Translations under genes and position numbers: made by a program
In this document: one piece after another, positions 8,499 through 8,590 of the stretch
Numbering within the stretch: the first letter of the stretch is position 1
Layout: each line of letters begins with the position of its first letter
Notes under the pieces: model-generated
Database searches by the model: none
The model's input: the letters and a program-made list of their open reading frames with translations, nothing else
Told to the model about the DNA's origin: nothing
Assembly (NCBI GenBank): GCA_030016755.1
Contig: JASEJC010000001.1
Location: 4,883-68,882 of the forward strand
DNA from: Candidatus Hodarchaeaceae archaeon
Lineage (GTDB): Archaea > Hadarchaeota > Hadarchaeia > Hadarchaeales > Hadarchaeaceae
Length of the DNA stretch: 64,000 bases
Direction of reading: 5' to 3'

Positions 8499-8542
8499 GC
8501 TTCCCCATCCAAACTTACACACATTTCAGTATTTCAAGTTTC

Positions 8543-8576
8543 GTAGTAATATTTATAACTAGAAAAGTATTACCAC
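8543..8576. promoter_or_regulatory. Candidate NikR operator: imperfect palindrome GTAGTAATA-N16-TATTACCAC overlapping a TATA-like TTTATA, in the nikR / membrane-protein divergent intergenic region
   Basis: The half-sites at 8543-8551 and 8568-8576 are reverse complements (GTGGTAATA), matching 8 of 9 positions, and are separated by 16 nt. This is the same architecture as the E. coli NikR box GTATGA-N16-TCATAC. The spacer contains 'tttataac'. Confidence 0.45.
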
Positions 8577-8590
8577 TTACCAAGAAAAAA

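Follow-up and report, generated by a model that had tools for sequence, protein, structure and literature searches.

To our knowledge, the regulons of the nickel-responsive repressor NikR have been mapped experimentally almost only in bacteria. A survey by Rodionov et al. in 2006 reportedly included archaeal NikR sites. An archaeal NikR has been crystallised (PDB 2bj1), and no paper describing archaeal NikR operators or targets was found in the literature. E. coli NikR recognizes the site GTATGA-N16-TCATAC (PMC7055735). NikR signals in general are inverted repeats of 27-28 bp, of the form GTATGAT-N13/14-ATCATAC in enterobacteria and GTGTTAC-N13/14-GTAACAC in delta-proteobacteria, and the reversed form of the latter, GTAACAC-N13/14-GTGTTAC, has also been described (Rodionov et al. 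2004, PMC545781); our comparison with signals from comparative genomics rests on this 2004 study. Here we describe a site of this kind in a 64,000-nucleotide stretch of DNA (the window) from a Candidatus Hodarchaeaceae archaeon (Hadarchaeota; contig JASEJC010000001.1), where a nikR gene and a gene for a small membrane protein diverge from one another. The conserved 28-bp core of the site, at 8546-8573, is predicted to be the operator of the adjacent NikR and to lie over the TATA box of the membrane-protein gene, a reading to which we assign a probability of roughly 0.8. The operator is of an already known type, and the membrane-protein family is the more novel lead.

At this locus the sequence reads ttcGTAGTAATAtttataactagaaaagTATTACCACtta. 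Direct reading and a scan of the window located an inverted repeat, GTAGTAATA-N16-TATTACCAC, at 8543-8576 (no strand applies to it or to its core). The left arm, GTAGTAATA, occupies 8543-8551 and the right arm, TATTACCAC, 8568-8576; 16 nt separate them (8552-8567), and 8 of the 9 arm positions are complementary. With up to three mismatches allowed, this 34-bp repeat had no other match in the window, and the chance expectation, from 100 dinucleotide shuffles, was a mean of 0.02 matches. An earlier reading made from the letters of this DNA (the sequence-only reading) had reported the 8/9 repeat, its 16-bp spacer and the TTTATA box within it; all were confirmed, and the repeat is unique in the 64 kb. 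The inner core, GTAATA-N16-TATTAC, is likewise present as a single copy, the one match with two mismatches elsewhere lying within a coding region at 6328. The same site (8546-8573) can equivalently be written GTAATAT-N14-GTATTAC, with a left half-site at 8546-8552 and a right half-site at 8567-8573, 21 bp apart from centre to centre. The half-site GTAWTAC is itself nearly palindromic, and both relative orientations therefore occur among relatives of the site. The 6-N16-6 geometry of the E. coli NikR box, to which the first reading had also drawn attention, is matched. The inverted repeat is real, and NikR, a nickel sensor, very probably binds to it; the 28-bp core was delimited as the predicted NikR box from the phylogenetic footprint described below and from the published signal class.

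The regulator is encoded by nikR (8094-8498, minus strand), which is divergent from the membrane-protein gene and specifies 134 amino acids comprising a ribbon-helix-helix domain and the ACT-like, C-terminal nickel-binding domain of NikR. The protein matched the Pfam families RHH_1 (E = 1.4e-10) and NikR_C (E = 4e-26), and NCBIfam NikR models above their cutoff. Its closest relative in the PDB was Pyrococcus horikoshii NikR, 2bj1 (E = 9e-31), and its residues H81, H92, H94 and C100 align with H78, H89, H91 and C97 of that protein, in agreement with the full nickel site claimed for it previously. We take these four residues of the P. horikoshii protein, three histidines and one cysteine, to be the high-affinity square-planar nickel ligands. 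These matches identify the protein encoded at 8094-8498 as a bona fide NikR whose nickel site is intact. Its start is most likely the ATG at 8498 and not the GTG at 8522, because homology among NikR proteins begins at MSQRITRV (the MSQ, MTQ or MQK position).

Relatives of the membrane protein were found at 57 loci in a scan of one genome per species, and nikR neighbours of these loci were located by tblastn. Seventeen sites entered the footprint: 15 from Hadarchaeota-type genome loci, one from the metagenome locus L162, and that of the window. All 17 could be placed in identical register as nnnGTAATAyTTwTA-N4-rAAAGTATTAynnn, with the box ending 18-37 nt before the start codon of the membrane gene, just ahead of the Shine-Dalgarno sequence. 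Information content, calculated for the 16 distinct sites, was high over GTAATAyTTwTA and rAAAGTATTAy and about zero in the flanks and centre. The 9-bp arms of the sequence-only reading were accordingly redrawn: the inner GTAATA/TATTAC was retained, relatives do not share the outer GTA/CAC triplets, and towards the centre the repeat continues as GTAATAyTT/AArTATTAC. One locus, L013, has a perfect GTAGTAATA-N16-TATTACTAC. A nikR gene is divergently adjacent to the membrane gene in 8 Hadarchaeota loci, and it is adjacent in 7 further archaeal loci, from Nitrososphaerales, Thermoplasmata, Methanobacteriota, three Micrarchaeota and one unclassified archaeon. In L005, L011, L013, L016 and L017 the box is kept and the retrieved DNA contains no nikR homologue; the box therefore travels with the promoter of the membrane gene.

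These comparisons bear on the notion that no regulator is involved, and that the symmetry is that of two basal promoters overlapping face to face, each with a transcription factor B recognition element (BRE) and a TATA box on its own strand. Each arm together with its T-rich tract (GTAATA-TTTATAA, and GTAATAC-TTTTCTA on the other strand) does look like a BRE followed by a TATA box, and in the window the TATA box is nearly palindromic. However, the right arm is equally well conserved in the five loci just listed, which have no divergent gene, and thus it is not explicable as the promoter of a divergent gene. The motif is, moreover, absent from the other promoters in the 64 kb of the window and in 123 kb of related loci, and in the Bathyarchaeia nikMN loci considered below a separate TATA box stands upstream of the box. 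We regard an origin of the symmetry in basal promoter elements as highly improbable. The half-site GTAATAyTT occurs in the window at the two operator arms and one other place only, and in the 123 kb of Hadarchaeota loci at these operators and one other place only. The half-site is not a generic promoter element, an eventuality raised in the sequence-only reading, and is essentially confined to the operators.

The predicted operator is superimposed on the putative core promoter of the membrane gene. The predicted TATA box of this promoter, TTTATAA (8552-8558, plus strand), falls within the operator spacer, and TTwTA has the same register in the orthologous sites. A BRE-like AGTAAT (8545-8550, plus strand) is found directly 5' to it, and transcription of the membrane gene is predicted to begin, on the plus strand, at about 8578-8584, as judged from the usual archaeal spacing of ~25 nt between TATA box and start. 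Of the two half-sites, the left one coincides in part with the BRE position, and the right one falls in the interval from the TATA box to the predicted transcription start. A Shine-Dalgarno-like GGAGG (8597-8601, plus strand) ends 7 nt before the GTG at 8609, and GGAGG/GAGGTG is kept ahead of the membrane gene in relatives. The membrane gene (8609-8914, plus strand) most likely starts at this GTG, giving 101 amino acids, and not at the ATG at 8591, which would give 107, since homologues begin with MVCY and the GGAGG stands at 8597-8601. With the starts reassigned to ATG 8498 for nikR and GTG 8609 for the membrane gene, the intergenic region measures 110 bp (8499-8608). The divergent arrangement reported at the outset stands; the sizes that went with it, a 68-bp spacer and a 107-amino-acid gene, become 110 bp and 101 amino acids by the starts of the homologues.

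Two other features border the operator. A conserved CATTTTCAAGCTTTCC-like block (catttcagtatttcaagtttc in the window) is found at 8523-8542, between the operator and nikR, and is seen at the same position in L001-L003, L006, L007 and L012, its distance from the operator varying by ~9 nt. This block may represent the start-site or 5'-untranslated region of nikR, or the site of a second factor. A perfect 7-nt inverted repeat, ACCACTT/AAGTGGT (8572-8578/8607-8613), could pair the right edge of the operator with the GTG start; it probably lies upstream of the transcription start, and because it is not conserved in relatives it was treated as a chance occurrence.

NikR-type boxes precede the same gene family in other lineages as well. 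In L022 and L032 an exact GTAACAC-N13-GTGTTAC was found before the membrane-gene homologues, and L039 has it with a single mismatch; L018 has GTATTAC-N14-GTAATAC before its homologue, and three Micrarchaeota loci have related boxes at the same promoter position. In a locus from Planctomycetia (L021, 2103-6481) the following are arrayed on one strand: hypD, hypE, a perfect GTGTTAC-N13-GTAACAC, nikR, the gene of an OprB-family porin, the membrane gene, and the gene of a GH5/DUF5060 protein. When a generalised NikR signal was searched across all 57 loci with up to two mismatches, about 25 of them had a box within 120 nt upstream of the membrane gene, a search space of ~7 kb. The other ~390 kb yielded 22 matches, nearly all with two mismatches, and the sole perfect one was the L021 box before nikR.

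Metagenomes were scanned with the pattern GTAATAYTT-N10-AARTATTAC. The matches listed are mostly chance occurrences in AT-rich DNA and are unfit for counting the size of a regulon. Among these matches, the box was directly upstream of CbiM/NikM and PDGLE (NikN) genes in L151, L154 and L164, of a nikR gene in L150, and of ZnuA-type ABC operons in L172, L093 and L105; in L118 it preceded the gene of a TonB-dependent receptor adjoining a His-rich protein. The NikM proteins of the box-bearing loci belong to Bathyarchaeia. As a guard against ascertainment bias, three orthologous Bathyarchaeia nikMN loci were picked by protein identity and not by pattern. All three had GTAATAC-N14-GTAATAC or GTAACAC-N14-GTATTAC at 12-13 nt before the start codon, and in each case a TATA box, TTTATAA or CTTATAA, was located just 5' to the NikR-type box. 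Thus, in another archaeal phylum GTAWTAC-N14-GTAWTAC accompanies genuine nickel-transporter genes, and the position of the TATA box makes the two elements separable. The further copies that were sought were present before nikMN transporters in Bathyarchaeia, and none was found at the hydrogenase genes of the window or of the related loci.

It may be asked whether a transcription factor other than NikR has the conserved palindrome as its operator, the adjacency of nikR being only a matter of conserved gene order. Binding by NikR is predicted from sequence, several Hadarchaeota loci keep the site with no nikR next to it, and the conserved CATTTTCAAGCTTTCC-like block on the nikR side of the operator is unexplained, all of which would suit another factor. 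The sequence and spacing of the half-sites, however, fit the published NikR signals; NikR-type boxes accompany nikR and the membrane-gene family across distant phyla, with lineage-specific sequence changes; and the same box is placed before nikMN, before the nikR gene of L150 and before the TonB receptor that adjoins a His-rich protein. On balance, a factor other than NikR appears improbable, though somewhat less so than an arrangement of basal promoter elements.

Two observations from the metagenome scan are recorded here. Among the matches listed, a box in L088 (2-1313) is upstream of a gene for an FmdE-domain protein with a DksA/TraR zinc finger, which is followed by the gene of a membrane protein with weak similarity to ABC_cobalt permease components; the FmdE-domain gene is a possible further NikR target. 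In contigs of ~55% GC (L062, L063, L068, L071, L133, L142, L161 and L170, and in reverse L078, L087, L106 and L112) a perfect GTAATACTTTT-N6-GGAAGTATTAC palindrome precedes the gene of a very large secreted repeat protein, and no nickel-related gene is nearby. This contig family was judged bacterial from its ORF content alone, and its palindrome is probably an unrelated operator that shares the pattern by chance.

If NikR acts on the predicted operator in the window, we infer the following scheme. A NikR tetramer would place its two ribbon-helix-helix dimers one on each GTAWTAC half-site, the half-sites being two helical turns apart, in the manner of the E. coli NikR-operator complex, in which each half-site is bound by one ribbon-helix-helix dimer. 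The nickel-loaded protein would block assembly of TBP, TFB and RNA polymerase on the BRE/TATA region and the start site, and when nickel is sufficient the membrane gene would be shut off. In the usual logic of NikR it is uptake that is repressed at high nickel, and by this logic the membrane gene would most likely aid nickel uptake. The divergent operon of nikR and an HD-domain gene may share the quasi-symmetric TATA box, which would lead to autoregulation; this is the least certain step. Two features make autoregulation of nikR plausible: the near-symmetry of the TATA box, and a distance of 45-62 nt between the box and the start of nikR in most Hadarchaeota loci. Of the NikR control proposed in the sequence-only reading, that of the membrane gene is supported by the footprint, the match to published signals and the nikMN boxes, and autoregulation stays only plausible, as the box follows the membrane gene. 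Elsewhere, GTAGCAC-N14-GTGCTAC abuts the nikR start codon in L039 (3902-3929), a locus that also has a membrane-gene box, and GTGCCAC-N15-GTGGCAC abuts that of L047; these palindromes, richer in GC and separate from the membrane-gene box, suggest dedicated autoregulatory nikR sites in the two lineages.

The presumed target of NikR in the window is a protein with three predicted transmembrane helices. It had no Pfam match at E <= 0.01 and no NCBIfam match at E <= 1. A large protein database held 289 relatives, all of them unannotated, and the sole organism name attached by any source was Hadesarchaea. A profile search of 1.84 billion representative proteins defined a family of about 112 clusters (at 50% identity), nearly all of 90-110 amino acids. 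Its members occur in Hadarchaeota, DPANN archaea and Thermoplasmata, and also in some bacteria; the literature search turned up no paper on them. AlphaFold2 modelled the protein as three transmembrane helices without a soluble domain (mean pLDDT 77), and a fold search of the PDB with this model gave no match at E <= 0.001 and none below E = 3. In the numbering of the 101-residue protein, C3, G36, G65 and W76 are invariant across the family, and P7, L30, D44, H45 and E50 are kept in at least 90% of its sequences. The loop after helix 1 and the C-terminal tail are basic, which by the positive-inside rule suggests an N-out topology; Cys3 and the DHLWNGE motif would then be on the outer face, where they could form a plausible metal-capture site. 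Identity with PDGLE/NikN was rejected, as no Pfam or NCBIfam match was obtained. A divergent paralogue is present in L115 (46-408, minus strand): its 120 amino acids show 35% identity over 52 residues, with AIEHIAHGE replacing VVDHLWNGE, and its gene stands behind the same type of box, divergent from an operon of deoxyhypusine synthase, nikR and HD genes. The superfamily may thus be broader than the 112 clusters.

Besides nikR, genes found within 4 kb of members of the family encode HypA, HypD/E, subunits of group 4 and group 3b NiFe hydrogenases, LarB/C/E, a ZIP transporter and a Fur-family regulator. No nikM, nikQ or nikO was adjacent to the membrane gene in any of the 57 loci. A role in nickel acquisition is favoured by the predicted repression by nickel-loaded NikR, by the operon that links the gene to a porin in a diderm bacterium, and by these gene neighbours; we consider the membrane protein a candidate for this role, at rather less than even odds. 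Slightly more tentative is the fuller proposal that this protein of ~100 amino acids founds an unrecognised family for nickel uptake, acting as a stand-alone oligomeric permease or as a capture subunit. NikR would control such a family in Hadarchaeota, Thermoplasmata, Altiarchaeota, Micrarchaeota and one planctomycete, and the protein would bind Ni(II) at an outward-facing site composed of Cys3, near the N-terminus, and the Asp44-His45...Glu50 motif, at the end of helix 2.

The operator could also be a genuine NikR site whose target is not a nickel importer. The protein might serve in sequestration, in delivery of nickel to the maturation of hydrogenase or Lar enzymes, as an accessory subunit of another transporter, or as the carrier of another metal, and NikR might even activate it. 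About 100 amino acids and three helices are small for a stand-alone permease, the protein matches no transporter family, and its gene is often beside hydrogenase, hyp and lar genes and not beside transporter genes. In some bacteria the neighbours are a Fur-family regulator (L019), or a CDF exporter or FeFe-hydrogenase maturases (L025). The NikR of H. pylori is known as an activator as well as a repressor, which would count for such a reading. On the other hand, a site spanning the region from TATA box to start is, in archaeal promoter architecture, expected to be the position of a repressor and not of an activator; the nikR-OprB porin operon of Planctomycetia holds the membrane gene, which suggests an uptake route across two membranes; and the same box precedes nikMN importers in Bathyarchaeia. 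We therefore consider a function other than import unlikely, while giving it appreciably more weight than another regulator at this site.

Several points weigh against the reading of this locus as a NikR operator that governs nickel uptake. The left arm of the operator is confounded with the BRE and TATA box, and the right arm alone is clean operator evidence. The Hadarchaeota loci are related to one another, and the 17 sites cannot count as independent events. In the Pfam, NCBIfam and PDB searches the membrane protein resembled none of the known nickel transporters, and the predicted uptake role draws only on regulatory logic and gene neighbourhood. Overlap of the site with the nikR promoter is conjecture: nikR lies ~110 nt from the box in L008, where the intergenic region is 162 nt, and ~700 nt from it in L010, where nikR has no box of its own in an intergenic region of ~750 nt. 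Autoregulation is unproven because the box stays with the membrane gene as the spacing grows in these two loci. Finally, neither the window nor the 123 kb of related loci, which include hydrogenase and hyp genes, yielded a second site, and the visible regulon has a single target. The sequence-only reading had correctly placed a LarB-like gene (of the AIR-carboxylase family, 48-611) and a NiFe hydrogenase cluster (group 4, 12044-17223) in the window, and had supposed that the site might belong to a wider nickel regulon. This supposition is not supported, as no box is present at the LarB-like gene, at the hydrogenase cluster, or at the hydrogenase and hyp genes of the related loci.

The other genes of the region can be described briefly. 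An HD-domain gene of the YfbR-like 5'-deoxynucleotidase type (7516-8079, minus strand; Pfam HD_3/YfbR-like) is located 14 nt downstream of nikR, and this pairing is found in 9 Hadarchaeota loci; the two genes are probably co-transcribed. In L015, L115 and L162 a gene for deoxyhypusine synthase is placed ahead of nikR in the same operon. Between the gene of a 134-amino-acid membrane protein and the end of the HD gene, some 300 nt (7215-7515) contain no convincing ORF and no Rfam match, and an Rfam scan of 6500-9500 gave one chance lncRNA match and nothing else. GTAATA at 7220 and TATTAC at 7280 fall within this interval; they are 54 nt apart, the wrong spacing, and were rejected as an operator. 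On the other side, a gene for an 89-amino-acid, beta-barrel-like protein (8992-9261, plus strand) follows the membrane gene, as it does in 10 Hadarchaeota loci. Its product has sub-threshold Pfam matches only, with weak similarity to domain 2 of EF-Tu and to the C-terminal beta-barrel of Peptidase_U32. It is uncertain whether this gene belongs to the transcription unit of the membrane gene; TTTAATTA, ~30 nt upstream of it, may be a TATA box of its own. Within the hydrogenase cluster, an ORF of 486 amino acids (12952-14412, minus strand) has a Cas12f1-like TNB domain, as in transposon nucleases of the TnpB type. It separates the gene of the hydrogenase large subunit (14450-15595) from that of the small subunit/ferredoxin (12044-12940), two genes that abut directly in L015, and has the appearance of a mobile element inserted into the group 4 NiFe hydrogenase operon.

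The site is thus predicted to be a clean archaeal NikR box, with a repressor of bacterial type acting directly on a BRE/TATA core promoter, and it marks an uncharacterised family of small membrane proteins as nickel-related. Should these proteins prove to be nickel importers, they would explain how nickel is supplied in lineages that abound in NiFe hydrogenase, CO dehydrogenase and Lar enzymes, and would permit better annotation of many uncultured genomes.

When set beside the E. coli NikR operator, the site has the same layout of two 6-bp half-sites exactly 16 bp apart, 28 bp in total, and its half-site shares GTA and the final A, GTAATA agreeing with GTATGA at 4 of 6 positions. Both sites fall on the core promoter, in the window a predicted one, of a gene adjoining nikR, and nickel-dependent repression is expected. 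In E. coli, however, the half-site is GTATGA, the target is an ABC importer and nikR is downstream of the operon, whereas the window has the half-site GTAATA, an archaeal promoter with its TATA box in the spacer, a three-helix protein as target, and a divergent nikR. The delta-proteobacterial signal is also an inverted repeat of 27-28 bp with 7-bp half-sites and N13/14 between them; with its reversed form, the left arm of the window site (GTAATAT) has 5 of 7 positions in common, and the right arm (GTATTAC) has 6 of 7. The window site differs from that signal in the C-to-T change in its half-sites, its A/T centre, its archaeal setting, and a target other than nikMNQO or nikK. The nikMN box of Bathyarchaeia is similar in its GTAATAC/GTATTAC half-sites and N14, but there the TATA box is 5' to the box and not in the spacer, and the target is a recognised nickel/cobalt component of the ECF type.

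With regard to the target, a survey of 47 archaeal genomes in 2009 reported nickel transport by Nik/CbiMNQO, NikABCDE and NiCoT only (PMC2667541). NikK and NikL have one N-terminal transmembrane segment and a periplasmic part (PMC545781), unlike the window protein, which is almost wholly membrane-embedded in the AlphaFold2 model; identity with NikL was set aside on this published single-segment description, the window protein having three transmembrane helices and no soluble domain. It differs from the known nickel transporters (NiCoT, HupE/UreJ, UreH, CbiM/NikM, PDGLE/NikN and CbiN) in having three helices in ~100 amino acids and no model match. Nevertheless, it resembles the known nickel permeases and small transporter components (NiCoT, HupE/UreJ, CbiM/NikM, NikN/CbiN with PDGLE, and NikK/NikL) in being a membrane protein linked to NikR, with its gene in the vicinity of hydrogenase, hyp and lar genes, and in having a conserved Asp-His pair that ends a transmembrane helix together with an N-terminal residue of metal-ligand type. 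These latter features may be likened to the HX4DH motif found in NiCoT and to MHIPD at the N-terminus of NikM.

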